From IMG/VR virus record IMGVR_UViG_3300032931_000905, positions 25,021 to 89,020 of that record: a stretch of 64,000 nucleotides of DNA; one strand, given 5' to 3'. The translations under genes and the position numbers were made by a program. Under the pieces are notes generated by a model. The model ran no database searches. It was not told where the DNA came from and was given only the letters and a program-made list of their open reading frames with translations. This DNA is from a virus. Positions 6,287 through 44,787 of the stretch are shown here, one piece after another. The first letter of the stretch is position 1. Each line of letters begins with the position of its first letter.

Positions 6287-6289
6287 GAC

Positions 6290-19267: not shown

Positions 19268-19968
19268 CGTTCCCGATAGGCATTTTCGGCAATCAGAAAA
19301 TCTTTGACCAGATCATCACGTACAATGTCCTGAGTCCCGAATTCAATACAGCAAAATTTTCCCATATCCCGAAGAATTTCCATAAAATGTCCGAGTCCTG
19401 TGCGTTCATCATGGCGCTGAAGATCCGATTGGCGATAATCACCACAGAAAATCAGCCGGCAGTTCTTGCCTATGCGGGTAATAATCGTATGCAATTCATG
19501 ATAGGACATATTCTGCATTTCATCGACCACAATCACCGCATCAGAGAAGGTCACCCCGCGAAGGTACGAGGTGGTCGTAAACTTCAAACTTCCTCGACCT
19601 TTGAGGTGTTCATAGGCATCAGCGCGTTCCAGGAGATCATTACAAATATCCCGATAGGGGTCTTCATAGACTGCAATCTTTTCTTTCAAGGTGCCTGGCA
19701 TGAACCCAATTTCGCGTGAGGGTACAACCGAGCGCACAATAATCACTTTATCGTAGAGCGGAATCACCTGGCTTGGCGTCGGGAGCGTCATCATCAAGGC
19801 CAGATTCAAGGAAATAAAGGTCTTGCCTGTGCCTGCCACACCATGGAGTAAGAGATGATCGCCTCTGTGAAAGGCCTTGAAGGTGTCGGATTGATTGATC
19901 GTGAGGGGCTTGACTCGTCGGAGGATGAGGGGTGACGCTACGATATCGAGGGTTTTGCGTTTGGCCAT
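19255..19968 (-). CDS. phoH: PhoH family ATPase
   Basis: GVAGTGKT, GFMPG...EK, LRG.TF, VDEMQN, TRIG, GD..QSD, IVR. Confidence 0.95.
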   Translation of the reverse strand: MAKRKTLDIVASPLILRRVKPLTINQSDTFKAFHRGDHLLLHGVAGTGKTFISLNLALMMTLPTPSQVIPLYDKVIIVRSVVPSREIGFMPGTLKEKIAVYEDPYRDICNDLLERADAYEHLKGRGSLKFTTTSYLRGVTFSDAVIVVDEMQNMSYHELHTIITRIGKNCRLIFCGDYRQSDLQRHDERTGLGHFMEILRDMGKFCCIEFGTQDIVRDDLVKDFLIAENAYRERCPF

Positions 19969-22402: not shown

Positions 22403-22891
22403 TTAGAACACCCAACCCGTCTGAATCGTGACCATGTTCATGCCGATATTCGGACCATCAGCGGTATTCAGACCCAGGGCTTTTCCATTCGACATATGCC
22501 ACAACTCTACACCCAAGCGAAAATCTTTGTATCCTACGCTCACTTGCCCGCCCAGACCAAACTGGGTCCGCTGGGGCAATTCGATCTGTGAATGATCGAC
22601 ATACGAGACACCGAATCTCGGCGTCAAGGTCACACTATAATCTGGCTTCGGCTCAAACTTGAAGCCGTATTGTAACTCGGTGCCATAGAAACCGTTTGTG
22701 GTCGCTTTGGCATTGATTCCCCAACCCTTGTCACAAGTCTGCACTGAGACAATCGCGGCATTTCCCGCGGTATTCTGGTGCTTGGATTGTTTGAAATCTG
22801 TGGAGGCCATGTATCCTGCCATCAGGACGGGGGCTAAACATAATGTGGCCACTTCTCTAATCACTCTGAGTCTCCTTGTTATTCTCGTCAA
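22403..22891 (-). CDS. PagL-like lipid A 3-O-deacylase / small beta-barrel OMP
   Basis: Signal-like N-terminus, amphipathic strands, H-x-S-N motif (WHMSNG) then PN.G.N, terminal Phe. Confidence 0.7.
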   Translation of the reverse strand: MTRITRRLRVIREVATLCLAPVLMAGYMASTDFKQSKHQNTAGNAAIVSVQTCDKGWGINAKATTNGFYGTELQYGFKFEPKPDYSVTLTPRFGVSYVDHSQIELPQRTQFGLGGQVSVGYKDFRLGVELWHMSNGKALGLNTADGPNIGMNMVTIQTGWVF

Positions 22892-22994: not shown

Positions 22995-23276
22995 TTATAA
23001 GTCATTGATATCATTGATATGTTCGTGATTCGTGGGAATAGGTTCTATCAGAAGAAAGGAATACGCCGTATATCCCTCATTTTTCATCTTTCCGGTACAG
23101 GATAGACTGGCTAGCCGACAAAAACGCTCTAGATCGCCCTCAAACGAGAGATCATCACAGAAGGCGATCAATTCATCACCTGGCGAGAGTTCGTTGATCC
23201 TGAGCCGAATGTGGAGGATTGGGAAGGGACAAACCATGCCCCGGCAATCTACAATAGGGATACCGGAATGTTCCAT
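22995..23276 (-). CDS. TusA/SirA-like sulfur carrier
   Basis: VDCRGMVCPFP...L.PGD.L....DD. Confidence 0.85.
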   Translation of the reverse strand: MEHSGIPIVDCRGMVCPFPILHIRLRINELSPGDELIAFCDDLSFEGDLERFCRLASLSCTGKMKNEGYTAYSFLLIEPIPTNHEHINDINDL

Positions 23277-31619: not shown

Positions 31620-32477
31620 TTAGACATGAGCATACCTTCTGAATCCCATGACCATGCCGACGGCGAGGAACAGATAGATCCATGTGGACGGTTCGGGCAC
31701 ATTCGTCTGTGGCACATTAGGAGCAACAGGAGGCGCGGTCGTCGTAAACGAGATCGGCGCATCATAGGAACAGGGCCGGGCAATGCTCTGACAGACTCGG
31801 AGATTATCAAAGCCCACCGTGAATCCAGGGGTCGTCGTCGCATGCCCAAAATTAAACACCAGGGCGCCTATGGGGGCATTATGAGCAAACACGGTAGGGA
31901 CATTCGTATTGATCGGAATGTTCATGGTATCCAGGTCATAGTGGAACCATCCAGTTCCAGGCGGGATGCCGATACCCAAGGCAAACACATTCGGGCCCGC
32001 ATCAGGGCCTTCGTTCCCTAAAATATTGATCTGCAAGAAGGCAGCATTATCATGGTAGATATCCACGCCTTGGAAGGTAAACTCGGCGTCATGCTTGCCA
32101 GGCTCGGCGTCATGCTTGCCATGAAGACCTAGGGCCGGAATGTAGGTCATCATATTCGTGGATAAATTTTGAAAGATATTAGTCGTGGCCATGTGATTAA
32201 AAATGGCATTCGTCGCATTCCCACCGATACCAGATTCCAAGTTCCAATCGACCAATGAGGCCACTTGACTCATGCGAAACGGGCCCGCATTGACGGTAGG
32301 CGGTTCGATGCCTGGAAAACCATTCAATTGATTGGTGGCAGACACTATCGGCACCAGCGCATCAAAATTGATCGTCGTGGCCTGTACCCGCCCAGTCATG
32401 ACCAGACACGCCAGGATTACCATGGACGCCCCCAGGGCCCAGACACCGACTCGTTGTAACATCGTTCTATTCTTCAT
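31620..32477 (-). CDS. PEP-CTERM exosortase-target surface protein
   Basis: Signal peptide; C-terminal VPEPST + TM helix + RR. Confidence 0.9.
   Translation of the reverse strand: MKNRTMLQRVGVWALGASMVILACLVMTGRVQATTINFDALVPIVSATNQLNGFPGIEPPTVNAGPFRMSQVASLVDWNLESGIGGNATNAIFNHMATTNIFQNLSTNMMTYIPALGLHGKHDAEPGKHDAEFTFQGVDIYHDNAAFLQINILGNEGPDAGPNVFALGIGIPPGTGWFHYDLDTMNIPINTNVPTVFAHNAPIGALVFNFGHATTTPGFTVGFDNLRVCQSIARPCSYDAPISFTTTAPPVAPNVPQTNVPEPSTWIYLFLAVGMVMGFRRYAHV
32082..32121 (-). repeat. 21-bp-period tandem duplication in PEP-CTERM gene
   Basis: ctcggcgtcatgcttgcca twice (GKHDAE x2). Confidence 0.85.
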
Positions 32478-33640
32478 CTTATTGCTCCTTGATTGTAGAG
32501 TCATACCTATTTCTATGCGAGAATCCAGTACACCAGGACAGCCAGGGCCCATAAGGTGATCGAGACCACGAGGCCCCACAGGATACCGACGGCCGGCGCT
32601 AAGTTATCGTGTTGTTTCATAGGTTCACACCTTTGAGTAGATAGGAGGTCGTCGTCAACTGCATGACAAACTCTTCCACGACACATCCCACATAGGGATT
32701 GTACGCCGGATCGCTTTGAGATAACTTCAAATGGGCACGCAAGTGATTCAGGGCCACCCATGTCTTACCCTGCTTGGTCCACGTAATCCGATGAGGTGAA
32801 CCTCCGGTACTATACAGACCGTGGGGATTGCGTATCTTATAGATCATTCTCTCCTCAATTCAGATCCATGCCACACACCCTTTCAGGTATGCTGACTTCA
32901 AAATTTGGATCGTTCTTCGGATCGACCCAACGGAAATCCTTGCCATCTTGGCTACGAATAAACAGGCGACCATCTGAAGGCGTCACCCCGGCCATCGTGG
33001 CCCTGTCAAGGTCCCACAAGAACCCACGGTTCAAGCACACCGTCTTGCCTTTGCGGGTCTTGGGTATCAATTGGACTCGTTCGTTCTTCATATCCCACCA
33101 TCTAACTCCATCACCTGCCTGGTGAGGTCATCGTTCTCAGCGGTCAATAGATCGATTTGGTGTGCATGGGCCTCGATCATGTTCAGAAGGAATAGGATAT
33201 CCTTCTGACCTTGGCGGATAAACTTCGTGGTATCCATGAGGTCCTTCAAGGGGTCCAAGGATTCCCAACGGCCAAGCAGTGTTTCAATCTCAATCATCGT
33301 CTTGTTCATCACAGTCTCCATTCATCGGCACAACGGACAAGTTCGGCCGCATTGCGGTCCGGTCGCTTATAGGTAAATAGAAAGTTCAGCCGTTGGTATT
33401 CCTGGGCCTCGGCCATCAATTCCTCATACCGATCCTCAAGGCCCTGTCGTTCTTGGGGTGTCAAGATCGTCTCCCTGCGGTCTCTTCGTCTTTTTCCCAC
33501 AGGCACAGGTCACAGAGGTATTCGGCGTCACTTTGGTTCAGGTACTCATCCACGCAGCGGCATCGGTCACAATCGGTCTGTCTCAATTCGGTGCTCATCA
33601 TAATAAGAGTATAGCATAAGTGGCACAAGGAAGTCAAGAA

Positions 33641-34099
33641 CTATTTTGTGTAGTAAGTCTTTGAATTATAAGGGGTTTTGCTATCGGGTAACCAATGTCT
33701 TCGATCTTCGACCTCTTTTCGCTTGGACATCAGCAATCGATAGGCCTTATCCATCGACATGGCACGATATTTCATGAGATACCAGAGAATGGTCAAAGGC
33801 GAGCGTTCGACCCCATAGGCACAATGCACCAGGACTTGGTGACCTTGTGTCAGATGTTGATGAATCCAGTCAGCGGCTTCATCCATCTTGACGGGATCAG
33901 CGACGATTTGATCCTGGGCGTTCCAGGTGGTGGTAGGAATAGAATGGGCTCGGCGCATTCTGCCAGGTTCCCCTGGCCACATCACACAGAGAATGTGCAT
34001 GTCCTTGGGGGCTGTGGCCGCGCCAGTTCGGCTGCCTAGAAAGAGATTCTCACTGATTTCATCATAACCAAACATACAGTTATTTTGTGATCGGTTCAA
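33641..34099 (-). CDS. dual-specificity / tyrosine phosphatase
   Basis: VLVHCAYGVERS (HCX5R). Confidence 0.9.
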   Translation of the reverse strand: MNRSQNNCMFGYDEISENLFLGSRTGAATAPKDMHILCVMWPGEPGRMRRAHSIPTTTWNAQDQIVADPVKMDEAADWIHQHLTQGHQVLVHCAYGVERSPLTILWYLMKYRAMSMDKAYRLLMSKRKEVEDRRHWLPDSKTPYNSKTYYTK

Positions 34100-34688
34100 A
34101 TTTTCTGGTGATGGGGTTCAATTTCCTTCCCAATTGTGCAAGTCTCAGTTTCTCTTTTGTTGCATCGGAGTGTTGGTGTGAATGCCCCTGCTTTCCGGTC
34201 TTTGTTGTGCTTATTTTCATGCGTGTCTCTTCACTGACACTATGACCCATTTTCGACTCACTAATGTTTTGTTTTCGTTCCTCAGAAAAGATTCTACCAA
34301 TGTTCCATTGATTACCCAACTTTTGCTTACTCATAAGTTCTTTTGCCTCATCAGTATGCCTATAACCTAATCCATATTGTTTCCCGATATGGGTCTGTGA
34401 TATCCGAGCCTTTGCCTCATCGGTATGCCGATAACCTAACCCATGCTTGTTTCCACGATTTGCTACAATTTGCCGCTGGTGGACAATCTCTTCTTTACCC
34501 AGTGTGTTAGTCAAACCTTGATAAGCAATTCGATCTTGCCATGCTCCGTATTGTTCAAATAACCATCTATGACATTCAGCATGTTGATCTACAGAAAGAT
34601 ACACTACATTACCAGAATCATCAACACCATCCAACGAACCAAAGCGCCGTTTCCATTCATGTTTTGGAATGATATGATGACGGTGCAA
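34080..34688 (-). mobile_element. HNH-NUMOD3 free-standing homing endonuclease
   Basis: HHIIPKHEW..N...L...QHA..H plus repeated G.RHTDEAK..IS NUMOD3 motifs. Confidence 0.8.
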
Positions 34689-34691
34689 GAT

Positions 34692-35603
34692 TCAGGCTCC
34701 TACCGCAACTGTTACCCGCGAGGCCAATGCTTTTGCCTTCGCTTTTTCGTCTGCTTTCTTTGCAGCTAAATCAGCGAGAAACGACTTTGCAAGATCAGAA
34801 ATATATTCAACTGGTTGAAACCTCTCACCAGGCTTTTCCGAATCCCTCATTTCTTGCAGCCCCTCCATGCTATTCTTTCCGATTTCCAGAATGCACGGTG
34901 TGTAAATTTGACAATACGAAGGACCCAGTTCCCTAGCAACCATGATCGAGTTTTTGATATGCCTTTCAACTAAACTGGGCTTGCTGCAAGTGAACTTGGC
35001 GATATATTGACAGCCAGATTCACGAGCGATCTCAGGCAGACGAACTTTATCAAACAACTTTCCTACAGGCGCCATCTTCGCCACAAAGCCTTTTTGCATC
35101 AGACCAGATTCCTGGCCACCGGTGTTCGCATACAATTCATTGTCGAAGCAAATCGTCGTGAACTTCTCTTGACGGAACCAGGCTTGCAAGGTCATATCGA
35201 GGCCGATATCCACGGTAGCCCCATCGCCTGCGAGGACGACCACATCTTTTGTCTTGTTGGGGAATCGAACAGAGAGGGCGCGCTTGAGGCCTGAGGCAAT
35301 GGCGTTTTGATTACCGAAGAGTGAGTGGATGTTATGGACGGCGACCATTGGAAATACCAGACTGGTACACCCTGTGGAACCGACCATGACCGTATCTTCT
35401 GGGTTAGGGAGCGAGGCGAGGATATACCTGAAGGCCATGGACTCTGGGCACCCGGCGCAGAGGGAATGGGATTCGATCAATTCCTTCTTGTTGCCAATGT
35501 CCTTCCAACCGCGGTCTTCCTTGCCATAGGTGGCATTGGAGACCAGTTCTTTGTATTCTGGGGGCATGATGTCGAAGAGATCGGGGGAAATGGTAGGAAT
35601 CAT
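34692..35603 (-). CDS. 2-oxoacid (pyruvate/2-oxoglutarate):ferredoxin oxidoreductase beta subunit
   Basis: CAGC, STGC, TPP motif GDG...DN.LYANTGGQ.S, YTPC; resembles (from memory) five-subunit Por/For beta subunits of Nitrospirota/Aquificota. Confidence 0.9.
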   Translation of the reverse strand: MIPTISPDLFDIMPPEYKELVSNATYGKEDRGWKDIGNKKELIESHSLCAGCPESMAFRYILASLPNPEDTVMVGSTGCTSLVFPMVAVHNIHSLFGNQNAIASGLKRALSVRFPNKTKDVVVLAGDGATVDIGLDMTLQAWFRQEKFTTICFDNELYANTGGQESGLMQKGFVAKMAPVGKLFDKVRLPEIARESGCQYIAKFTCSKPSLVERHIKNSIMVARELGPSYCQIYTPCILEIGKNSMEGLQEMRDSEKPGERFQPVEYISDLAKSFLADLAAKKADEKAKAKALASRVTVAVGA

Positions 35604-35650
35604 TGGTCAAATCTCCTGGTGACGGGAGTTGCATGGTGTATTTAGGGGTA

Positions 35651-35724
35651 TGGTCGACCCTACAGGTTACGCTCCTGTCTCACCGCAATGTCAATGCGGT
35701 ATTCTGCTAATGAACTAAGGGTCG
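35651..35724 (-). tRNA. tRNA-Val(GAC)
   Basis: CCGCA-TTGACAT-TGCGG, CCA encoded. Confidence 0.85.
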
Positions 35725-35727
35725 TTG

Positions 35728-35803
35728 TGGTCTGCCTGGAGGGATTTGAGCCCCCATCCTCCCGGTTCGAAGCCGAGTAGTCTTCCAGTTGACGTACAGG
35801 CAG
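35728..35803 (-). tRNA. tRNA-Arg(TCG)
   Basis: CTCGG-CTTCGAA-CCGGG, CCA. Confidence 0.85.
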
Positions 35804-35862
35804 TCTAGATCAAAAAATCTTTCCATGCGTAGATTACACGGTCTATTCTACGCAAACCTTAT

Positions 35863-35937
35863 TGGTGCCACGGGTGGGATTCTAACCCACGTTGTCCCGC
35901 TTAGGAGGCAGGTGCCTGTACACTAGGCTACCGCGGC
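35863..35937 (-). tRNA. tRNA-Arg(CCT)
   Basis: CCTGC-CTCCTAA-GCGGG, CCA. Confidence 0.85.
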
Positions 35938-35941
35938 GTTA

Positions 35942-36017
35942 TGGACTCGCTGGTGGGATTCTCACCCACAACCTTCCAGGTAGAAACTGGAAATGCAAAT
36001 AATTACACCTCAGCGAG
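35942..36017 (-). tRNA. tRNA-Arg(TCT)
   Basis: TCCAG-TTTCTAC-CTGGA, CCA; atypical D/T loops. Confidence 0.75.
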
Positions 36018-36022
36018 ATATT

Positions 36023-36097
36023 TGGTGCTCCCAGAGAGTATCGATCTCTCTTTTCCTGGTTGAGAACCAGGCGAACTAGCCAGTATTCGATGGGAGC
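36023..36097 (-). tRNA. tRNA-Glu(CTC)
   Basis: CCTGG-TTCTCAA-CCAGG, CCA. Confidence 0.85.
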
Positions 36098-36507
36098 GTA
36101 TTATGCGTCGGCCAATAATATGGCAGGTCCGTTGGCTCGACCCAATGAAACTGCCCGTAATACTTTGGGTCTTTTCTCAATAAGTTACTTCGGTGTGCGC
36201 TATGAAATTGCTCAGAGTTGTGCCAAGGTGGATAGACAACAGGGCACTCAACGACATATAAGGGCATGTTATTGTTATACCCTCGACTTATCCATTCCTC
36301 GATGCAGGTATTCACATACAATTTCAGCGCATGTTCATACCCCTTCCACATCAACACCGCAGGATGATTTTTCCATCCTTGCTTTGCAGACGGATTCAAC
36401 AACACATTCAAAATCTGCATTCCTTCGACTCGTTGTTTTCCTAACCGACGATAATCTAAGGCTTGCACAGATTTCTTAAAAGAGGGGTAGGGCAAAAATG
36501 TTTGCAT
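36076..36507 (-). CDS. pyrimidine-dimer DNA glycosylase-like (MSMEG_6728 family)
   Basis: MQTFLPY..F..S...LD.RRLGKQRVE, HPAV.MW.G, HRSNLLRKDP. Confidence 0.85.
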   Translation of the reverse strand: MQTFLPYPSFKKSVQALDYRRLGKQRVEGMQILNVLLNPSAKQGWKNHPAVLMWKGYEHALKLYVNTCIEEWISRGYNNNMPLYVVECPVVYPPWHNSEQFHSAHRSNLLRKDPKYYGQFHWVEPTDLPYYWPTHNTLPSNTG

Positions 36508-36555
36508 GAGAGATTATAGCACAGTATTCATGCCCTGTCAAGTGCTATTATAAAT

Positions 36556-36860
36556 TGGTGGAGATGCCGGGAATTGAACCCGGGTCCAAAAGCAACGTCA
36601 AAGTCAGATTTTCATGCTAGTCAATCTTACAACGCCCGCCAAAGGGATTGACACCTTCTACGGTCTTCTTGAGCGCACAACTTGCCTCCAAGAATGACGC
36701 TTCACCACCTACAGGAGCCTATCAGTGGGTCAACGGGCCGCGATTAAGCGGCCATTGCCAGTTCGTGTTCGACAATTCGGTTTTTCCAAGTATTAACGAG
36801 GTCCTGGTCCTCGGCATGTCCGTTCTTCTCTATACGCCTCTGTCGATACCTGTCATCCCC
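36556..36860 (-). ncRNA. ssrA: tmRNA
   Basis: 5' GGGGATGACAGGTATCGAC, 3' GGACCCGGGTTCAATTCCCGGCATCTCCACCA with G3-U; internal tag frame ...VEHELAMAA*. Confidence 0.92.
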
Positions 36861-36868
36861 TTTCATTG

Positions 36869-37069
36869 TTACCATGAGTCATAGTCTGTCAAATTACACA
36901 TGATACCGGTAGCCATATTTTCGACTTCAATGACCGTACCGATACCTGTCGGAGAAACATGAAACTCAAATGCCATGGGGCGTCCACCTGAGAGTTTCTT
37001 CTGTTTGCTCTGTTTGCGAATAAAGACTTCCAGGTTCTTCACTTCTTTTGCATTCAATTGAAACTTCAT
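36869..37069 (-). CDS. small hypothetical protein
   Basis: MKFQLN...PTGIG..V...T...LTDYDSW. Confidence 0.55.
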   Translation of the reverse strand: MKFQLNAKEVKNLEVFIRKQSKQKKLSGGRPMAFEFHVSPTGIGTVIEVENMATGIMCNLTDYDSW

Positions 37070-37083
37070 ACTATACTCCAAAA

Positions 37084-37168
37084 TGGCGGAGAGGTGAGTA
37101 GTCGAAACCCAACCTTTCGGTCCCACCCGCTTCAAACGGGGTTCAGTGCCCTGACTGATTACCTCTCC
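37084..37168 (-). tRNA. tRNA-Ser(TGA)
   Basis: Long variable arm, GCCA end. Confidence 0.8.
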
Positions 37169-37269
37169 TCAATATCCTAGAAGCCAGGTGGCCACGACAC
37201 CAATAGTCGCCGTAATCACAAAGGCTAAACCTAATGCTTTCCAATTGATCTGCATAGTATACCTCCAAA

Positions 37270-37357
37270 TGGCGGAAGAGACAGGATTTGAACCTGCGTG
37301 GCTTTGACACCGCATCCCTTTCCAAGGGAGCCCGATTGGCCTCTCTGGCACTCTTCC
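37270..37357 (-). tRNA. tRNA-Ser(GGA)
   Basis: Long variable arm, TTGGAAA loop, GCCA. Confidence 0.88.
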
Positions 37358-37367
37358 AAAAAACTTA

Positions 37368-37457
37368 TGGCGGAAGTGTGAGGACATGCTCCCCAGGGTA
37401 TCTAAGGCCCCAATCCGCTTTCGAGACGGTTCCGACACCTTGATCGGTTACACTTCC
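37368..37457 (-). tRNA. tRNA-Ser(CGA)
   Basis: CTCGAAA loop, long V arm, aberrant T loop. Confidence 0.78.
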
Positions 37458-37460
37458 ATA

Positions 37461-37547
37461 TGGCGGAAGAGGGAGGACTCGAACCCCACGGTGTGACCCG
37501 CAATCCGGTTAGCACCCGGTTCAGCTACCCTGCACTGGTCCTCTTCC
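37461..37547 (-). tRNA. tRNA-Ser(GCT)
   Basis: GTGCTAA loop, long V arm, GCCA. Confidence 0.82.
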
Positions 37548-37556
37548 ATCTAAAAT

Positions 37557-37841
37557 TGAGGAGCGCCCAACCATTGTCACATACACCCCATCCCTACCAT
37601 GCACCGCCTCATCCAATCAGTGTGCTGCGTAGGTGTGAAGGATTGTGTATTTCCCTTCACCCGTCAGAATCGGCGTTCGCTATGGATTAACAACGCCACG
37701 ATTCTGTAAAACATTTTACCCCAGTATCCAGATTAGACCGTCGATCAAACGGCCGCTGTTGTCCTTCGTCCGCTGTGGTAAATGCCTTAGGTTCGTATGT
37801 CGGTCTCGCCTGAGAGAAAGCCTTGCGGCCTACGCTCCTCA
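37557..37841 (-). ncRNA. unassigned ~285-nt structured RNA
   Basis: Ends pair (TGAGGAGCG/CGCTCCTCA); several internal hairpins; fills the gap between two tRNAs. Confidence 0.6.
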
Positions 37842-37844
37842 TTA

Positions 37845-37921
37845 TGGTGTCCCTGGGTGGACTTGAACCACCGATTTCAGACTTCGCAGGTCTGCGTCTT
37901 TTCCATCTGGACCACAGGGAC
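37845..37921 (-). tRNA. tRNA-Arg(GCG)
   Basis: CAGAC-CTGCGAA-GTCTG, CCA. Confidence 0.85.
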
Positions 37922-37935
37922 ATATTTCTGGCACA

Positions 37936-38010
37936 TGGTGAACGGTGCTGGTACTGCCCCAGCTTAGTCTTCCTTGTAAGGGAAGTGCATATCTTTCCTG
38001 CCCACCGTCC
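37936..38010 (-). tRNA. tRNA-Val(TAC)
   Basis: CTTCC-CTTACAA-GGAAG, CCA. Confidence 0.8.
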
Positions 38011-38018
38011 GTAACGTA

Positions 38019-38093
38019 TGGAGCCCTCAACCGGACTTGCGCCGGTCTATCCACCTTACCAAGGTGGCGAATCGCTATCTATTCTTTGAGGGC
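38019..38093 (-). tRNA. tRNA-Thr(GGT)
   Basis: CCACC-TTGGTAA-GGTGG, CCA. Confidence 0.85.
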
Positions 38094-38115
38094 ATATTTA
38101 TTCGTATGGGAGCAT

Positions 38116-38192
38116 TGGTGCCGAAGGAGGGATTCGAACCCTCACTGTGCTGCTTTTGAGACAGCCGCCTCCTGCCGTTGGGCTACTTCGGC
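38116..38192 (-). tRNA. tRNA-Leu(CAA), short variable loop
   Basis: GCTGT-CTCAAAA-GCAGC, CCA. Confidence 0.88.
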
Positions 38193-38197
38193 ATAAT

Positions 38198-38274
38198 TGG
38201 TGCTGGCGAGAGGAATCGAACCTCCACTTGTCCAGATTTTAAGTTTGGTGACTCTGCCTTTGGTCTACGCCAGC
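38198..38274 (-). tRNA. tRNA-Leu(TAA), short variable loop
   Basis: CTTAAAA loop, CCA. Confidence 0.85.
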
Positions 38275-38279
38275 ATACA

Positions 38280-38354
38280 TGGAGCCCCGTACCGGATGTG
38301 CGCCGGTTTCTGCGGTGTACGAAACCGCTGAATCACTATCAATTCTTACAGGGC
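38280..38354 (-). tRNA. tRNA-Thr(CGT)
   Basis: GCGGT-TTCGTAC-ACCGC, CCA. Confidence 0.82.
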
Positions 38355-38356
38355 AT

Positions 38357-38385
38357 AGTATAACACGACCCCCGATTATTGTCAA
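38357..38385 (-). promoter_or_regulatory. sigma70 promoter inside the tRNA island
   Basis: TTGACA-N17-TATACT immediately upstream of tRNA-Thr(CGT). Confidence 0.75.
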
Positions 38386-38488
38386 GTACAAAAGTGTTCC
38401 TGCTCCTTCTAGCCTTCTAGGGTCCCCTCATACCAGGATTGGGGTAGCGGATCGTTGCCGCCTCGGGTCGTGATAAGTTATACCAGAA

Positions 38489-38711
38489 TTAGACTCGGGC
38501 GTCCAGCGCGGCGGTCACTTCCTGCACCCCTGCCAATGTGGCGTCCAAGGCGGCTGGTGCCACTAATCCTGCTTGACCCGCGGTCAAGGCATCAACTTGG
38601 GTCTGCAAGGTCTGCAAGGCGGCCAACTTCACGGCGTCACGGGCGGCTTCTGCCACCTGTGCGGCCTTCAAATCTGCAACGGCACTTTCTAATTCTGCAA
38701 CTGTAGCCATG
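38489..38711 (-). CDS. small Ala-rich coiled-coil protein
   Basis: GAGGAG SD before MATVAELE; late promoter TATAAATA at ~38858. Confidence 0.55.
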
Positions 38712-38870
38712 TGTGTGTCTCCTCGTTGAATAAGTTGTTTCACTAACCGATATAACTCCTCGATGGAATGCTCGTCACCACCCATACAAAAATCGTGTAC
38801 CGACTTCAACCCCTCAAACGTTTCATCATGTTGCATAACGCACCCTCCTTCTAGGAGTATTTATACGCAT

Positions 38871-38945
38871 TGGTCAGGCTGGTTGGACTCGCACCAACAT
38901 GGTCTCCGTTCCGAACGGAGTAGTCAACTTTTGACCCACAGCCTG
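38871..38945 (-). tRNA. tRNA-Pro(CGG)
   Basis: CTCCG-TTCGGAA-CGGAG, CCA. Confidence 0.85.
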
Positions 38946-38950
38946 AATCA

Positions 38951-39024
38951 TGGAGCGGGATGCGGGTTCTGCCCCCGCGACACCGGTTTGGAAGACCAGC
39001 ATGTTGCTGCTACACCAATCCCGC
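38951..39024 (-). tRNA. tRNA-Gly(TCC)
   Basis: CTGGT-CTTCCAA-ACCGG, TCCA. Confidence 0.87.
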
Positions 39025-39247
39025 ATTATTCTTTATCAATACACCGATCTTTCGTAACAGGGCACTACCGAATTCTTTGGCGATATCATTCTCCATGTCA
39101 GGAGGATTGTACTCCAAAAAATCTTCAACCAATACCTCAGACATTGTAAGGGTGACCGTAATCTGTTTACGGAATTCATCGTCGATATCCATTCTCACCG
39201 ATTCGACAATCACCAGGTCTTGGTCTTTGGGTCTCATACTATCCTCA

Positions 39248-39322
39248 TGGAGCGGGTGGTGGGAATCGAACCCACATGATCCTTCTTGGCAGAAAGGTGA
39301 ACTACCAATGTTCCACACCCGC
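39248..39322 (-). tRNA. tRNA-Gly(GCC)
   Basis: CCTTT-CTGCCAA-GAAGG, TCCA. Confidence 0.87.
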
Positions 39323-39326
39323 GTTA

Positions 39327-39400
39327 TGGTGCTCCCTCGGAGAATCGAACTCCGGTGTGCCGGTCTTCAGGCGGTCGCTCTACTTTTGAGCTATTGAGGC
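39327..39400 (-). tRNA. tRNA-Phe(GAA)-like, apparently chimeric or defective
   Basis: D and T arms intact but acceptor (GCCTCAA/AGGGAGC) and anticodon stems mispair. Confidence 0.55.
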
Positions 39401-39404
39401 ATAA

Positions 39405-39480
39405 TGGCTCCAGGGGCAGGGATCGAACCTGCGACATCCTCATTAACAGTGAGGCGCAACTACCGCTGTGCTACCCTGGA
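39405..39480 (-). tRNA. tRNA-Asn(GTT)
   Basis: CCTCA-CTGTTAA-TGAGG, GCCA. Confidence 0.92.
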
Positions 39481-39496
39481 ATACATTCTATACTTA

Positions 39497-39570
39497 TGGT
39501 AGGGGTTCATGGTACCGCCCCATGGTTCACGGCTTCAGAAACCGTTGTCTTGCTATTAGACGAAACCCCT
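39497..39570 (-). tRNA. tRNA-Gln(CTG)
   Basis: ACGGT-TTCTGAA-GCCGT, CCA. Confidence 0.82.
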
Positions 39571-39575
39571 ATAAA

Positions 39576-39650
39576 TGGAAGCCCCCGTTGGAGTTGCACC
39601 AACCTAATCCGGGTCAAAGCCGGATGCCTAAGCTGCTCGGCCAGGAGGCA
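39576..39650 (-). tRNA. tRNA-Gln(TTG)
   Basis: TCCGG-CTTTGAC-CCGGA, CCA. Confidence 0.85.
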
Positions 39651-39667
39651 ATAATTTCTTTTTTCTT

Positions 39668-39742
39668 TGGTGGTCCGCCAGGGAATTGCACCCTGTTCCC
39701 CGGTTTAAGAGACCGGTGCTCATCTACTAAAGCTTGCAGACC
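39668..39742 (-). tRNA. tRNA-Lys(CTT)
   Basis: CCGGT-CTCTTAA-ACCGG, CCA. Confidence 0.87.
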
Positions 39743-39750
39743 GTCTATCT

Positions 39751-39825
39751 TGGAGTACCGGATAGGAATTGCACCTACATAGAGCGGCTTTGCAGGCCGC
39801 TGCCTCGCTATTCAGCCACCGGTAC
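39751..39825 (-). tRNA. tRNA-Cys(GCA)
   Basis: GCGGC-CTGCAAA-GCCGC, TCCA. Confidence 0.88.
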
Positions 39826-39942
39826 AAAATTCTCGTTACCAGGTAAACAGAACCCATCCTACTGAGAGGGAAAAGGACCTATAGTTATCTCGGTCCACTG
39901 TGGCATCGTATAGTAAATGACCCCACATGATACCCTCCATTA

Positions 39943-40018
39943 TGGCGCGCCGGACGGGAATCGAACCCGCTTGGTTCTCCTCGACAGGGAGATGTCCTTA
40001 CCAAATGACTCCCAGCGC
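39943..40018 (-). tRNA. tRNA-Asp(GTC)
   Basis: TCTCC-CTGTCGA-GGAGA, GCCA. Confidence 0.87.
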
Positions 40019-40174
40019 ATTTATTCTTTATCTCTTGCTTCCTTTTCCATGCGCTTGATCTTGTCCAGGTCCTTTGCGGTCCAACAGGGAGCCGCCCCAA
40101 CCTTATGTGGTTTGCACATCGGACAACTTCTCTTCTTGGACTTGTAAACTTTCATCAAGTCTCCTGTCAACTTA

Positions 40175-40258
40175 TGGTGGAGGTAGTAGGAATCGAACCT
40201 ACTGGGTATTAGCAAGGCTTTTACAGAGCCCCCTCGCGCCGTACGAGACTATACCTCC
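40175..40258 (-). tRNA. tRNA-Tyr(GTA)
   Basis: GGGCT-CTGTAAA-AGCCT, extended variable region, CCA. Confidence 0.85.
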
Positions 40259-40264
40259 GTTCAC

Positions 40265-40429
40265 TGGTCGGCAGGCGCCTTTCCGTCTTGCATCAGAAGA
40301 ACAATGCCGCTCGGCGAAACGCCGCGGAACTGATCTTTCCTAAGCCGTCATGGTGGCTATCCTGCCTCAATCGAAAACTTTGGGCACGTAAGCACTTCGT
40401 AGTGGTACGCATCAAGCAACCCGCCGACC
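40265..40429 (-). ncRNA. unassigned ~165-nt structured RNA with acceptor-like stem and ACCA end
   Basis: 5' GGTCGGCGGG pairs with 3' CCTGCCGACC(A); internal hairpins. Confidence 0.5.
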
Positions 40430-40460
40430 TCTATCTTTGGGGCGCTTGACTGCCCCGCCG

Positions 40461-40535
40461 TGGTGCCCCCACTGGGTATCGATCCCAGTTTTTCTGCTTG
40501 AAAGGCAGATGAACTAGCCAGTATTCGATGGGGGC
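40461..40535 (-). tRNA. tRNA-Glu(TTC)
   Basis: TCTGC-CTTTCAA-GCAGA, CCA. Confidence 0.87.
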
Positions 40536-40549
40536 GTAGTTCAAAAATG

Positions 40550-40833
40550 TAGGGTAACTTAATCAGCCTTTAGGCCTTGCTGAAGGAAACGCGCATTTCC
40601 CGTCTGGACTTACTTTGGTGGCCAGACTCTCGTTACCACTTGCTCGTCAAAAATTTGGGGTGCCTTGGTCCTCAGTTATTCCCCGGCAGGGAGGACTCCG
40701 CGAATTGCCAGGCCAGATGTTCCCAGATTCAGCACCCCTTGGGAACCCACGAAATATGCCGGGGGAAGATTTCACGTTCGTACCAACTTCTTCGGATTTT
40801 GAATAACGCACCATATCTATGCACGTTACCCCA
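40550..40833 (-). ncRNA. unassigned ~280-nt structured, probably pseudoknotted RNA
   Basis: Terminal GGGTAAC/GTTACCC; internal CCCCGGCA/TGCCGGGG, GTTCCCA/TGGGAAC, GGGGTGC/GCACCCC, GTCCTC/GAGGAC, GTCTGG/CCAGAC. Confidence 0.6.
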
Positions 40834-40926
40834 GTCCGTTGGTGTTCCGACCCGACTCTCTGCCTCTGATCTTCTGAGAGGACTTAAAATGACCGGCGCT
40901 TCTGATCGTGGTACCGGGCTTCCACT

Positions 40927-41184
40927 TTAGACCATACTTAACTGGACACTAAAACCACACCATGTTCCTGCAAGCCCAACAGCCGGATCTTTTTCTCGGA
41001 TTCGTTCCAGTTCAGTGATGGCGGCTCTCACGGCATCATTGACCTTCGTAAAATCTCCTACCCCGTTCACTATCGCGGCCCTAGACGTAAAAAACGAAAT
41101 CCCATTGATTATGACCCTGAACCGCTGAAACGTCTCAAACTCTTTCACAGCTTGTTTCCTCTGTTGTGTTTTCTCAATCATCAT
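40927..41184 (-). CDS. hypothetical early protein
   Basis: ATG just downstream of a TTGACT-N17-TATACT promoter (41190-41218). Confidence 0.6.
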   Translation of the reverse strand: MMIEKTQQRKQAVKEFETFQRFRVIINGISFFTSRAAIVNGVGDFTKVNDAVRAAITELERIREKDPAVGLAGTWCGFSVQLSMV

Positions 41185-41272
41185 ATTAAGAGTATAACAG
41201 AGCCCCTACACAGAGTCAAGCATTATTTGCCACATTAGAGAAATATAATGTACTGCAAAATCAACAACTTAG

Positions 41273-41361
41273 TGGTACACCGGTTGGGAATCGGACCCAA
41301 TCGAGGTGGTAATCTGCCACAAAGAGGTTATAAATCTCTCTTGCCTCCAAGGCGCCGGTGC
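41273..41361 (-). tRNA. tRNA with TAT anticodon (Ile) and long variable arm
   Basis: AGAGA-TTTATAA-CCTCT; V arm GTGG-CAGATTA-CCAC; very short D loop; CCA. Confidence 0.75.
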
Positions 41362-41448
41362 AAAACTTTTATGAGCGGAAGACTGGTAACTACGTCTTCC
41401 CTTTCCCCTCTGCGCTGTCTCACCAATTACAGAGGACTCAAAAACTTA

Positions 41449-41522
41449 TGGTGGGACGCAAGGGACTTGCACCCTCATCTTTCGGCTTAAAAGGCCGATA
41501 TTCTGCGTTGAACTAACGTCCC
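41449..41522 (-). tRNA. tRNA-Lys(TTT)
   Basis: TCGGC-CTTTTAA-GCCGA, CCA. Confidence 0.87.
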
Positions 41523-41529
41523 GTCTCTA

Positions 41530-41606
41530 TGGTGCGCCTGAGAGGATTTGAACCTCCACTGTACGGTTTCTAAAACCGTCGCCTCCTGCCGTTGGGCTAC
41601 AGGCGC
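41530..41606 (-). tRNA. tRNA-Leu(TAG), short variable loop
   Basis: ACGGT-TTTAGAA-ACCGT, CCA. Confidence 0.88.
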
Positions 41607-41613
41607 GTAATGT

Positions 41614-41687
41614 TGGTCGCGGTAGAGGAACTTGCATCCTCTCGATACGACTTATGAAATCGTTCGGCTTCGCTGGTGCCTACCGCG
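41614..41687 (-). tRNA. tRNA-Met/Ile2(CAT)
   Basis: ACGAT-TTCATAA-GTCGT, CCA; atypical D arm. Confidence 0.72.
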
Positions 41688-42309
41688 TCTGCTTCATTTT
41701 TCTACCCTTGATCCATCCAACCGGAATAGGATCGGTCTTTTTTATTTGACCATTCTCGTATGTCTGAGGATTCGTAATCCATATTTTACCAAAATTAGGA
41801 TTTCGTTCTCCAAGATTAGCAATGGCGTTGGCTGCGCCTATTTTCTTTTTGCTTTCATCAGAATGGTGCTTGCCGGCGAATCCATTCACCATCAAACCAT
41901 TAGCCCAGGCATCCTTTGCTGTCTGCCTACATATCTCTATAGTTTGGGGTGTATGTCTTTTACCAAGGAAAGGACGGGCTGATTTCCCTCCCAGGCTATG
42001 TAAACGGCGCCAATCTTCGGGTGTTCTATTCCTATTGATGAAATCAAATCCCCCTTCACCACCAGATTTCAAATTATAACTTTGTGGTCCAAGGACGACC
42101 AATTCTTTTTCTTTGGTAAACATTTCCTCCGCTGAGGAGGCTTCAAATAAAATCTCTTTCTTGAAATTATCCAGTCCGTATTTCGTGACGGCTTGCTTCA
42201 GGACTGTACCGGAACCCATGTACCCATCATCTTTATCTAAGGTCTTATGGCATCCGATATAGGTTTTTCCATTCAGGACATTCATAATTTGGTATACAAG
42301 ATAGTGCAT
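41680..42309 (-). mobile_element. GIY-YIG/NUMOD3 homing endonuclease (Seg-like)
   Basis: VYQI.N..NGK.YIG.H..DDGYMGSG, YNL..GG.GG, GK.H..E motifs; late promoter at ~42331. Confidence 0.88.
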
Positions 42310-42385
42310 AGTTAGTCTCCTTCTATGCACTATTTATAATAGTTCAATACCTAGGTATCAAACTCCCCCTGTTTCTCAAGAGGGC

Positions 42386-42462
42386 GGGTTGCGGGTACTG
42401 GAAATCGAATCCAGTGAACTCCAGGTTATGAGCCTGGTGAGATGCCACTTCTCCAACCCGCA
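42386..42462 (-). tRNA. tRNA-Met(CAT), initiator-like; 3' end ACCC rather than ACCA
   Basis: GCGGG.TGGAG 5' part, CCAGG-CTCATAA-CCTGG. Confidence 0.8.
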
Positions 42463-42708
42463 GATTCTTTATAATGGCAATAACTCTTCTTCTAAAACTT
42501 CTGGCCAATAGATTCCACCAGCGTGAACGGGCTCCCTCACTTCATAGACCCAGGACTTCTCTAACACAGACCAAAAAACATCCTCCACCTTCAAGACGGT
42601 ATCTCCTATACGCCTGACCTTCTGCCCAATATTAAACTTGGAGTCATTCATCGGGATATCTGACTCGGTACGATAATCTTTCACCTTCATGGTCTCTCCC
42701 ATAATAAA

Positions 42709-42948
42709 TTAGACTGCTTTCTTGATCCGCACCAGGTGGTACGAATCCACCACTTCATGAGTCAAGATCGTATGCCCATCCTGTTCGACACTTCTAGGCA
42801 CATTCTTAATCGGGGCCCCATCATCGAGCAGGACCGCAAGGATCTGCCCTTCTTCCAGGTCATCCAATTGTAACTTTGTTTTCACAAAATTAAACGGACA
42901 CATCACCCCGCGCAAATCTAAAAATTCTTCCTCACCAATTTTGCTCAT
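42709..42948 (-). CDS. TusA family sulfurtransferase
   Basis: LDLRGVMCPFNFVKTKL.LD.L..GQ.L.V.LDDG.P..NVP.S...GH. Confidence 0.92.
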   Translation of the reverse strand: MSKIGEEEFLDLRGVMCPFNFVKTKLQLDDLEEGQILAVLLDDGAPIKNVPRSVEQDGHTILTHEVVDSYHLVRIKKAV

Positions 42949-42951
42949 ATG

Positions 42952-43107
42952 TTACTTTCGATGCGCCTGGATCGCGGCACTTAACTTTCGATACACTTCT
43001 TTGGCGGCCATGGTCCATTCCTCTTGCGCCGGGTACCCGAGAAACGCGGCCTCTGAGGCTTTCTGTTCATCATAGGACAAGGATCGAACGGGTACTTTCG
43101 TTTCCAT
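42952..43107 (-). CDS. 51-aa hypothetical protein (METKVPVRSLSYDEQKASEAAF...)
   Basis: GGAGG SD; below the ORF-track size cutoff; resembles (from memory) a small Nitrospira protein family. Confidence 0.6.
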   Translation of the reverse strand: METKVPVRSLSYDEQKASEAAFLGYPAQEEWTMAAKEVYRKLSAAIQAHRK

Positions 43108-43135
43108 GTGACCTCCATAGATGGAAGAATCCTAC

Positions 43136-43207
43136 TGAGGCGTCCTGACCGCTAGACGAACCCGCGTCGAATGCCGCCGGTGCAGGATTCGAACCTGCGT
43201 TTCCTCA
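43136..43207 (-). ncRNA. circularly permuted tRNA-like module (YrlA/Y-RNA-like)
   Basis: Order TGAGG - T arm (GCAGG TTCGAAT CCTGC) - acceptor-like stem closed by a loop - D arm (GTCT AGCGGTC AGGAC) - CCTCA. Confidence 0.75.
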
Positions 43208-43218
43208 TGCTCTACAAA

Positions 43219-43293
43219 TGGTCTAGGTGACAGGATTCGAACCTGCATGATCTCGGCCCCAAACCGAGTGCCTGGCCATTAGGCTACACCTAG
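43219..43293 (-). tRNA. tRNA-Pro(TGG)
   Basis: CTCGG-TTTGGGG-CCGAG, CCA. Confidence 0.88.
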
Positions 43294-43311
43294 ATACGCT
43301 CTACAAACTTA

Positions 43312-43385
43312 TGGTGGACCGCCAGGGAGTCTCACCCTGTCTTCTCCGGTGCAAGCGGAGTGTGCTCATGTAACACCTGCGGCCC
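43312..43385 (-). tRNA. tRNA-Ala(TGC)
   Basis: CTCCG-CTTGCAC-CGGAG, G3-U70, CCA. Confidence 0.85.
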
Positions 43386-43468
43386 GTATGTTTATCGTCT
43401 AAGGGTTATATCGTGAATCAATCTGGCCATTTAGCGGCCACGGAGCAACTCACAACCCTTAGACTACA

Positions 43469-43541
43469 TGGGTGACGGACGGGTACTGCCCCCGCGTATC
43501 CTGTGCCACAAACAGGCGCTCTACTATTGAGCTACAGTCAC
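43469..43541 (-). tRNA. tRNA-His(GTG)
   Basis: CCTGT-TTGTGGC-ACAGG, CCA. Confidence 0.82.
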
Positions 43542-43570
43542 AATCGATCCTCAGTGTCTCTCTGAGGAAA

Positions 43571-43644
43571 TGGAGCCGAAACCGGGAATCGAACCCGAAT
43601 CCACGCATTACAAGTGCGTTATGTTTCCATTACACCATTCCGGC
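43571..43644 (-). tRNA. tRNA-Thr(TGT)
   Basis: ACGCA-CTTGTAA-TGCGT, CCA. Confidence 0.9.
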
Positions 43645-44161
43645 ATCTCTCAAAATGATAACGCTTCATTGCATTTCTACCTCCGACCTTTTGGCAGCGA
43701 GGACAGGTGACCTTTGAGTAGGTGACCCCAGTTTTACTTAAAATCATTTTCCTAACCTGTGACTCAGGTATCTTTTTTCCTCTCCAAATAGCACCAGCAG
43801 CATCCTTTTGTTTTTGAGAATTTTTCATGCCAAGCCGTGCTTGGTTTCCTTTCATGAATTCAACTCTGGCGGCATTCTGTTCTGCGGTACGCTTGACTCC
43901 CAGGGCTCTCTTCTTTCCTGTATTAGCAAACGATGCTGCCAATCTATGTGCTTCCTCTTTTCCTATCTGCTTTGAAATACTCAATGCCGCAATGTTGTCG
44001 TACTGACTCCCATTCAATTCTACGAGTAACCGGTGAACCTGAGCATGTTGTTCTGTTGTCAGGTTCACCAAATTCTCTTGAGCGTTCAAACCTCTGACAT
44101 TTCCAAACCGACTCTTCCACTCATGTCGGGGTATTACATGATGCCACGGCATACGATCCAC
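43619..44161 (-). mobile_element. HNH-NUMOD homing endonuclease
   Basis: HHVIPRHEW..NLV.LT.EQHA..H; C-terminal CPRC..MKRYHF..C. Confidence 0.75.
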
Positions 44162-44689
44162 CTATTCAAGAGAAGTATGCCAATAAAGGTATGAAACCCA
44201 GTTCTCCGGGGTCTTACGGATACCCACGGTCACGGTCAACACCTGGCTCCATACGGGTTGCTTCGGTGTCTTGAGCAAACGCATTCCTGCTTGCCCTGGT
44301 GTGCGCCCCGCCTTACGAGAATTGCACGGTACGCAAGCCGTGATAATGTTTTCCCAGGACTTCTTGCCACCCAAGGCCACTGGGTTCACATGGTCGAAAG
44401 TCAGTTCTTCCGTGGGGAACTTCACACCACAGTATCCGCACTTGCAACCGTCACGGGCAAAAATGTTCGCCCTGGTAAACTTGACTGGGATCTTGCGCTT
44501 GAGTCTGACCATGGTCAACATTCGCAAGACCGAAGGGATCTTCATGGAAAACGAAATCGAATGGATCTCTTCATCGTGTTCCTCAATGACTTCCGCCTTC
44601 CCCTGGCACCAGAGGGTCACGGCTCGTTGCCACGACACAATCTGCAAGGGCTCGTAACTGTGATTCAGCACTAATGTAAAGGCGCTCAT
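44162..44689 (-). CDS. HNH endonuclease (McrA-like)
   Basis: LVLN.SYEPL..VSW.RA, R.NIF.RD...C.YCG, TFDHV.P..GG..WEN....C..CN..K. Confidence 0.9.
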   Translation of the reverse strand: MSAFTLVLNHSYEPLQIVSWQRAVTLWCQGKAEVIEEHDEEIHSISFSMKIPSVLRMLTMVRLKRKIPVKFTRANIFARDGCKCGYCGVKFPTEELTFDHVNPVALGGKKSWENIITACVPCNSRKAGRTPGQAGMRLLKTPKQPVWSQVLTVTVGIRKTPENWVSYLYWHTSLE

Positions 44690-44713
44690 AATAACTTCCT
44701 TCTTGAAGGCACA

Positions 44714-44787
44714 TGGCATACCTACGAGGAATTGCACCCCGATCATTCGTTTTGGAGACGAATATGTTGCTGTTACACCACAGGTAT
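44714..44787 (-). tRNA. tRNA-Trp(CCA)
   Basis: TTCGT-CTCCAAA-ACGAA, GCCA. Confidence 0.86.

Follow-up and report, generated by a model that had tools for sequence, protein, structure and literature searches.

A porB gene on a T4-like phage contig

We analysed a 64,000-nucleotide window of viral DNA (bases 25021–89020 of the 89,020-bp IMG/VR record IMGVR_UViG_3300032931_000905, here G000, rated 53% complete by CheckV) that encodes the beta subunit of a 2-oxoacid:ferredoxin oxidoreductase (OFOR). The gene, porB (34692..35603, minus strand), is a single intact frame of 303 amino acids with an ATG start, and inspection of the sequence places a Shine–Dalgarno-like AGGAG (35613..35617, minus strand) 9 nt ahead of the ATG. 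Directly upstream is tRNA-Val(gac) (35651..35724, minus strand; ARAGORN and Rfam), the last gene of a tRNA island; downstream, after a gap of 3 nt, is an HNH/NUMOD3 homing endonuclease (34080..34688, minus strand; PF07460, E 5.5e-14; phrog_655). A preliminary description, made from the letters of this DNA, had placed the gene between these two features, as we find, and had given it the span 34692..35645. The first coordinate holds, but the second takes in 42 nt of upstream DNA, ending at the motif CTAAATA.

The contig is clearly that of a T4-like phage, as judged by hallmark genes on both sides of porB. Its PHROGs include a gp5-like baseplate hub/lysozyme, baseplate wedge, tube and hub proteins, gp32, the gp59 helicase loader, primase, ribonucleotide reductase, thymidylate synthase, RtcB, an ATP-dependent DNA ligase, PhoH and several homing endonucleases, to which Pfam adds gp6, gp8, gp25, PAAR and DenV-type genes.

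By homology, the porB product is an OFOR beta subunit that binds thiamine pyrophosphate (TPP) and a [4Fe-4S] cluster. It has the C-terminal TPP-binding domain PF02775 (TPP_enzyme_C; E 4.4e-16, 59.5 bits against a cut-off of 21.9 bits). A search of the PDB matched nine distinct sequences, all of them OFOR beta subunits or the equivalent domain, headed by the pyruvate:ferredoxin oxidoreductase beta chain 9bt4_C (E 4.5e-23), with whose cluster cysteines those of PorB align. All four ligands of the proximal [4Fe-4S] cluster are present (C49, C52, C79 and C237, in the pattern CxxC, C, C), and the TPP/Mg motif, G126-D127-G128...N155, lies inside the PF02775 domain. The cysteines and the GDG...N residues are invariant in an alignment of phage and host Por and For subunits; in a set of 121 sequences, comprising the window PorB and its 120 best database relatives, C49, C52, C79, C237 and D127 are each conserved in 121/121 and N155 in 120/121. 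The intact frame, the domain and the retained cofactor residues bear out the earlier claim of an intact TPP- and Fe-S-binding beta subunit.

Matches to NCBIfam were weak: 14 families, led by VorB/PorB models at 107–108 bits against cut-offs of 405. On NF008819, the equivalog for pyruvate synthase PorB of four-subunit enzymes, the phage protein scores 106.8 bits, under the 405-bit cut-off. Because the host protein, PorB of Nitrospira moscoviensis, scores much the same (108.1 bits, likewise far under 405), we read the low score as a mark of the five-subunit enzyme type rather than as a defect of the phage copy.

Absence of partner subunits

Hidden Markov model (HMM) searches of all 89,020 bp of the record gave no match to POR_N, POR, PFOR_II or CO_dh-like, and tblastn with the PorD, PorA, PorG, PorE, ForB, ForG, ForD and ForA proteins of N. 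moscoviensis matched only the porB locus there. The statement that no alpha, gamma or delta partner lies in the window is thereby confirmed and extended to the 89-kb record. An operon with alpha, gamma, delta (CODH-epsilon-like; CODH, carbon monoxide dehydrogenase) and epsilon (2x[4Fe-4S]) partners is lacking in the 89-kb record, as it is in the complete relative described below, which bears on the context of the phage gene and not on the protein family of PorB.

The closest viral relative is a 176,325-bp genome, G001, rated 100% complete by CheckV, whose porB locus (L001) encodes a PorB 81% identical to that of the window. G001 is colinear with the window record, at 67–74% nucleotide identity where the two can be aligned, and shares its tRNA island, with tRNA-Val(gac) again as the last gene, directly ahead of porB. 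Neither HMM searches nor tblastn with host subunits found any other OFOR subunit in its 176,325 bp. On the evidence of this complete relative, the lone state of porB is real.

Orthology to Nitrospira porB

A search of 5.8 billion proteins with PorB gave 1301 matches out of 3452 candidates. The best 120 of the 1301 are 79–98% identical to the query, and the 10 named ones among them are all from Nitrospirota. In contigs drawn from one genome per species, 430 stretches code for a PorB relative; the best 80 of the 430 are 81–85% identical, and 78 of these 80 are titled Nitrospira, Nitrospiraceae or Nitrospirota (the other two are an unnamed 'bacterium' and one labelled Nitrosospira). The closest relatives are therefore from Nitrospira and other Nitrospirota, which are organisms with a reductive tricarboxylic acid (rTCA) cycle, and the likeness to five-subunit Por/For enzymes of Nitrospirota that the preliminary description had suggested holds, both in these loci and in the five-gene operon of the host.

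Each of three complete Nitrospira genomes (3/3) has one locus 82–84% identical to the phage PorB and one or two loci, paralogs, at 42–43%. In N. moscoviensis, the phage protein is 83% identical to the product of NITMOv2_0813 (768235–769113, also given as 768226–769134, minus strand) and 43% identical to ForB. NITMOv2_0813 is given as a curated porB, encoding the beta subunit of pyruvate:ferredoxin oxidoreductase (POR) and strongly transcribed, at rank 116, and the cluster at 641–645 kb that holds the 43% locus is given as forB/forA, in the part of the published account on which we draw (Mundinger et al. 2019, PMC6606698). The tree called for in the preliminary description separates Por-type from For-type betas at 100/100 support and places the window beta in the por clade. 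By identity and tree position, the window gene is the ortholog of Nitrospira porB and not of forB.

The host por operon runs delta (CODH/acetyl-CoA synthase-epsilon-like, PF02552), alpha (POR_N and PFOR_II), beta, gamma (POR) and epsilon (Fer4). This is the five-subunit, oxygen-tolerant type that the literature, so far as it was available to us, describes in Hydrogenobacter and Aquifex and infers for Nitrospira. The phage protein shares with N. moscoviensis PorB its length, C-terminal tail, cofactor residues and NCBIfam profile; the host gene stands in the delta-alpha-beta-gamma-epsilon operon, whereas the phage gene stands alone.

A second host-derived gene on the contig, encoding a phosphate-selective porin O/P of Nitrospira origin (14988–16286, minus strand; PF07396, E 7e-40), also points to Nitrospirota and so supports the assignment of the phage to a Nitrospira host. 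Among the genome loci that match the porin, 13/16 are from Nitrospirota, at 38–75% identity (12 of them at 61–75%), and the remaining 3/16 are from Gemmatimonadota, at 39–44%.

As a separate observation, N. moscoviensis has a third, apparently degenerate copy (L101, G009:C1:1788000-1801000; locus positions 5903–7319), in which a 145-amino-acid remnant with only the PFOR_II domain is followed by an intact for-type beta of 296 amino acids. No gamma, delta or epsilon genes lie nearby.

Age and selection

We compared the window porB with five host copies and L001 using our own Nei–Gojobori script. The proportion of synonymous differences (pS) is 0.79–0.83, which is saturated, and that of nonsynonymous differences (pN) is 0.125–0.154, giving a pN/pS of ~0.15; for the five host copies the values are ~0.82 (pS) and ~0.13 (pN). 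Two hosts compared with each other have a pN of 0.032 and a pS of 0.685. The GC content of porB (0.499) is near that of the surrounding phage DNA (0.476), whereas the host copies are at 0.54–0.63.

In 266 alignment columns, conservation among 81 host rows reaches 95% or more, and the window PorB deviates at 29 of these columns. These deviations fall at the N terminus (16, 18 and 19), at 45 and 117, in 199–233 and in the C-terminal tail, 263–303. Residues 23–198 (apart from 45 and 117) and all of 234–262 match the host consensus, and they hold every cofactor ligand.

The junction between tRNA-Val and porB is also kept in L001 (145 aligned columns, with a mean identity of 82%), and a 98%-identical PorB occurs on another contig (P0001). 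Because pS is saturated, the GC content is phage-like and the catalytic core is that of the host consensus, porB is an old, selected phage gene and not an assembly chimera, a possibility that the preliminary description had raised against itself. By these measures, porB was taken from a Nitrospirota host long ago and has been kept under purifying selection. Host-derived, flanked by phage genes and maintained by selection, it is an auxiliary metabolic gene in a bona fide phage genome.

In the trees, the PorB clade of Nitrospira has an unresolved base, from which viral por-type copies branch as three lineages: the window with P0001 (100/100), L001 with P0002–P0006 (97/92), and seven low-GC viral contigs (100/100). 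Approximately unbiased tests reject neither a clade uniting the window lineage with that of L001 (P = 0.43) nor a clade of all viral copies (P = 0.25), so one to three captures of porB by phages are possible.

Six positions (19, 204, 214, 264, 271 and 274) are invariant in 80–81 of the 81 host rows and altered in 8–9 of the nine viral copies. We considered a systematic set of 'phage signature' substitutions and dropped it: among the 120 best relatives from the databases, positions 16, 204, 214, 271 and 274 are highly variable. Because most of the apparent signature positions vary among these relatives, they reflect a narrow host sample. The only one still notable is 264, which is tyrosine in 81/81 close host rows, mostly tyrosine or phenylalanine in the 120 best relatives, and replaced in 9/9 viral copies by six different residues.

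Other viral carriers of por and for genes

In two scans of IMG/VR, a beta gene of por or for type was found on at least 20 distinct viral contigs, and we judged gene content from 6–10 kb on each side. Carriage of porB only is seen in the window, L001 and L003 (the last without POR_N anywhere in its 108-kb record); three further contigs (L002, L132 and L133) show only porB in a view that ends at the contig edge. Both porA and porB are present in L004, at a contig edge, and in L117, with ~2.9 kb between the genes; L007 has porB and forB; L005, L006 and L008 have porA, porB and forB, in either order. Only forB is in view in L123–L131, several of which reach the contig edge. No gamma, delta or epsilon subunit was found in the DNA examined around any of the 20 contigs.

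The contigs with por- and for-type betas in tandem (L005, L006, L007 and L008; GC 0.31–0.37) are T4-like, and PorA is present in 3/4 of them. The wider low-GC group (GC 0.31–0.41) also has T4 RNase H, and its members L002, L003, L007 and L008 encode aldehyde dehydrogenase, proline dehydrogenase, a saccharopine-dehydrogenase-like gene, GAPDH and an HtrA-like protease. Among 50,697 GenBank phage records searched with tblastn, 11 matched, all at <35% identity and none spanning 80% of the PorB query, so these records contain nothing closely related.

G001 encodes an IscA/HesB-type Fe-S carrier (L150, G001:C1:93886-94185, plus strand; PF01521, 74 bits), which could serve the [4Fe-4S] cluster of its PorB. 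The carrier was found in this genome only, in 1/4 viral records searched and not in the 89-kb record of the window. FA_desaturase was found in 0/4 viral records, and the ferredoxin motif CxxCxxCxxxCP gave no match in the window record and two spurious short open reading frames (ORFs) in G001.

Genomic context and expression

porB is the first protein-coding gene past an island of 25 tRNAs and a transfer-messenger RNA (tmRNA) on the same strand. The island (35651–44787, all minus strand) has 25 tRNAs according to ARAGORN and 25 according to Rfam; the two sets differ by four each way, giving up to 29 tRNA-like genes. The tmRNA is full length (36556–36860, minus strand; Rfam RF00023, 120.9 bits, model positions 1–374 of 374), and ARAGORN reads its tag peptide as GEASFLEASCALKKTVEGVNPFGGRCKID. 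Several homing endonucleases lie within the island (41680–42330, 43619–44161 and 44162–44746). The HNH/NUMOD3 endonuclease downstream of porB is missing from the corresponding place in L001, as judged by ORF layout.

The motif CTAAATA (35639..35645, minus strand), 36–42 nt upstream of the porB ATG, is a candidate T4-type late-promoter core (TAAATA). A late-like CTAAATA promoter had been proposed in the preliminary description. The motif is present and its core is kept in L001, where the sequence at the matching position is CATAAATAC and TAAATAC is conserved, but the 7-mer CTAAATA is no more frequent than chance predicts (4 copies, 3.93 expected). For the T4 late consensus TATAAATA the record has 6 copies where 1.02 are expected, but the element ahead of porB is CTAAATA and not TATAAATA. 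The core TAAATA is enriched: it has 32 copies in the 89-kb record, some of them ahead of baseplate genes, and for 15 an ORF on the same strand starts no more than 80 nt downstream, where a uniform distribution would give 1.7; the AT-richness of intergenic DNA inflates this enrichment. A late-type promoter for porB is plausible, and read-through from the tRNA island is equally possible. The sequencing runs that match the stretch are nine DNA runs (shares 0.04–0.13) and no RNA run, and are uninformative on expression.

PhoH (19255–19968), together with the porin described above, may represent phosphate-acquisition auxiliary metabolism. Two genes encode TusA-like sulfur carriers (PF01206), one at 22995–23276 (minus strand; E 1.5e-11) and one within the tRNA island at 42709–42948 (minus strand; E 4.7e-20); they may be connected with the thiolation of tRNAs or with Fe-S supply. 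Other host-like genes encode a PagL-like lipid A deacylase (22403–22891, minus strand; E 5e-6), a 319-amino-acid protein with a PEP-CTERM sorting signal (31620–32579, minus strand; E 3e-4) and a dual-specificity phosphatase (33641–34099, minus strand; E 7e-16). Among the baseplate genes is one for a protein with a TnsA-like endonuclease N-terminal domain (7535–7981, plus strand; PF08722, E 1.9e-19).

Proposed role during infection

In OFORs, alpha contributes the pyrimidine-binding domain of the TPP site and beta its pyrophosphate-binding domain. Because beta brings only the pyrophosphate-binding half, it is inactive alone and must use the PorA of the host. In our view, the gene is best read, from sequence conservation, as the contribution of one subunit by the phage to the enzyme of its host. 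PorB would be made during infection, possibly through the late-type TAAATA promoter or read-through from the tRNA island, and would assemble with host PorA, PorG, PorD and PorE, replacing or topping up host PorB. Host POR containing the phage subunit could then sustain pyruvate synthesis or, in reverse, pyruvate oxidation, so that POR activity, the supply of pyruvate and carbon, and redox balance would continue while host expression is off. We consider it probable that phage PorB joins the host POR subunits in this way and keeps pyruvate synthase working during infection, to the benefit of the phage. The argument from supply is reasonable because POR is abundant and highly expressed in Nitrospira, according to the portion of the published data used here (PMC6606698), and oxygen-tolerant isoforms are reported, in what we could consult, to have low specific activity.

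Several points weigh against this proposal. The names Por and For in Nitrospira rest on curated annotation and not on biochemistry. POR is reversible, and carriage of the gene does not show that CO2 fixation is the direction that matters. The delta-alpha-beta-gamma-epsilon order of the host operon matches the 2-oxoglutarate:ferredoxin oxidoreductase (OGOR) cluster of Aquifex and not its pyruvate:ferredoxin oxidoreductase cluster, as far as the cited account goes (PMC10052474), and operon order alone would suggest For rather than Por. Phage branches, at 0.23 for the window in one tree and 0.15 for the lineage of the window and P0001 in a second, are long, whereas host branches are very short, with a median below 0.02 (median end branch 0.0085 in the tree in which the window has 0.23); some relaxation or a change of function could account for this. 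Finally, the record is 53% complete, such that partner genes could lie in the missing half, and six other viral contigs have porA and porB together.

A changed function is the core of the alternative that survives best, in which phage PorB modifies the complex rather than serving as a spare part, and alters its direction, regulation, oxygen tolerance or choice of partner. It might, for example, favour pyruvate oxidation, giving reduced ferredoxin and acetyl-CoA for phage synthesis. The clustering of substitutions at 199–233 and in the tail 263–303, the replacement of the host tyrosine at 264 in every viral copy, the long phage branches and the reversibility of POR all speak for such a role. 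However, most of the signature positions (16, 204, 214, 271 and 274) vary across the 120 best relatives, the substituted regions are also the most variable among hosts, and the cofactor ligands and core are all unchanged. We regard a modifier as unlikely.

It is considerably less probable that porB is not alone, with alpha and perhaps other subunits encoded in the unsequenced 47% of the phage genome. The incompleteness of the record allows this, and so do the co-occurrence of porA and porB on the six other contigs and the presence of a for-type beta after porB in four contigs. In those contigs, however, the subunit genes are contiguous or a few kilobases apart (porA directly adjoins porB or its neighbour forB in 5/6), whereas here a tRNA and a homing endonuclease flank porB, and the colinear, complete G001 has porB only. 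That porB is a decaying passenger or a stretch of host DNA joined by misassembly or misbinning is close to refuted: the greater branch length of the phage copy relative to the host copies speaks for it, but the frame is intact with a ribosome-binding site, pN/pS is low at saturated pS, the GC content has moved to the phage level, the tRNA-Val junction is kept in a second phage and a 98%-identical protein occurs on the P0001 contig.

If the phage does supply a subunit, the choice of beta may itself carry information. Carriage is of beta only here and in G001, and other lineages carry PorA, PorB and ForB; gamma, delta and epsilon never appear in the DNA examined. One speculative extension, which we put forward as doubtful, is that beta-only carriage marks PorB as the specifically damage-prone subunit, with fast turnover, in the oxygen-tolerant five-subunit POR, and that aerobic rTCA autotrophs run a repair cycle like that of the photosystem protein D1, which phages exploit. 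If this were true, phage gene content would amount to a natural experiment that shows the subunits limiting aerobic CO2 fixation through the rTCA cycle.

Relation to known systems

The porB of the window resembles cyanophage psbA, which encodes D1, in that a phage carries one core subunit of its host's central machinery for energy and carbon, a subunit derived from the host and highly conserved. D1 turns over fast, and expression of cyanophage psbA has been demonstrated. These are features of D1 and psbA that are not known for PorB, and the parallel is an analogy only.

Both this class of gene and the psbA-type idea, which the preliminary description had put forward for the window, were already published in 2020, when T4-like phages of Nitrospirota were described from Lake Baikal (populations VP_1723 and VP_99; Coutinho et al. 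2020, Microbiome 8:163, PMC7678222). In the sections of that paper on which we rely, the phages encode a homologue of N. defluvii PorB, described as a ferredoxin oxidoreductase, together with an OGOR subunit, a protein of Fe-S assembly and a ferredoxin, and the authors propose that dark carbon fixation is modulated through an auxiliary metabolic gene of the rTCA cycle, drawing the parallel with cyanophage photosynthesis genes (PMC7678222). Compared by description, the phage of the window is like these in being a T4-like myovirus of Nitrospirota with a GC content of ~47% and a PorB homologue as an auxiliary metabolic gene, and the Fe-S cluster assembly gene has a counterpart in the relative G001. 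The OGOR 'epsilon' subunit, acyl-CoA desaturase and ferredoxin described from Baikal have no counterpart found here in searches for CO_dh-like and FA_desaturase domains and the ferredoxin motif. The same sections contain no selection analysis, assignment to paralogs or complete genome. A 2025 soil study, in the part available to us, lists viral korB/por genes among auxiliary metabolic genes of carbon fixation (PMC12615777). Our literature searches found no report of beta-only carriage in a complete genome, nor of selection on these genes. Lone carriage in a complete genome and the evidence of selection are thus a refinement of the published principle. The phage beta also resembles those of the five-subunit POR and OGOR of Hydrogenobacter thermophilus and Aquifex aeolicus, with GDG...ID and four cysteines including a CxxC, a relationship taken from the published descriptions as far as we could consult them (PMC10052474).

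The value of the finding is incremental: it is a clean, well-supported example of a principle published in 2020, and adds a second, higher-GC phage lineage that keeps porB alone, under long-term purifying selection. In soils, freshwater and wastewater plants, nitrite is oxidised mainly by Nitrospira, whose CO2-fixing rTCA cycle relies on unusual ferredoxin oxidoreductases that tolerate oxygen. Phages with core subunits of these enzymes can alter dark carbon fixation and nitrification during infection, and the choice of subunits that they carry hints at what limits the enzyme in vivo.

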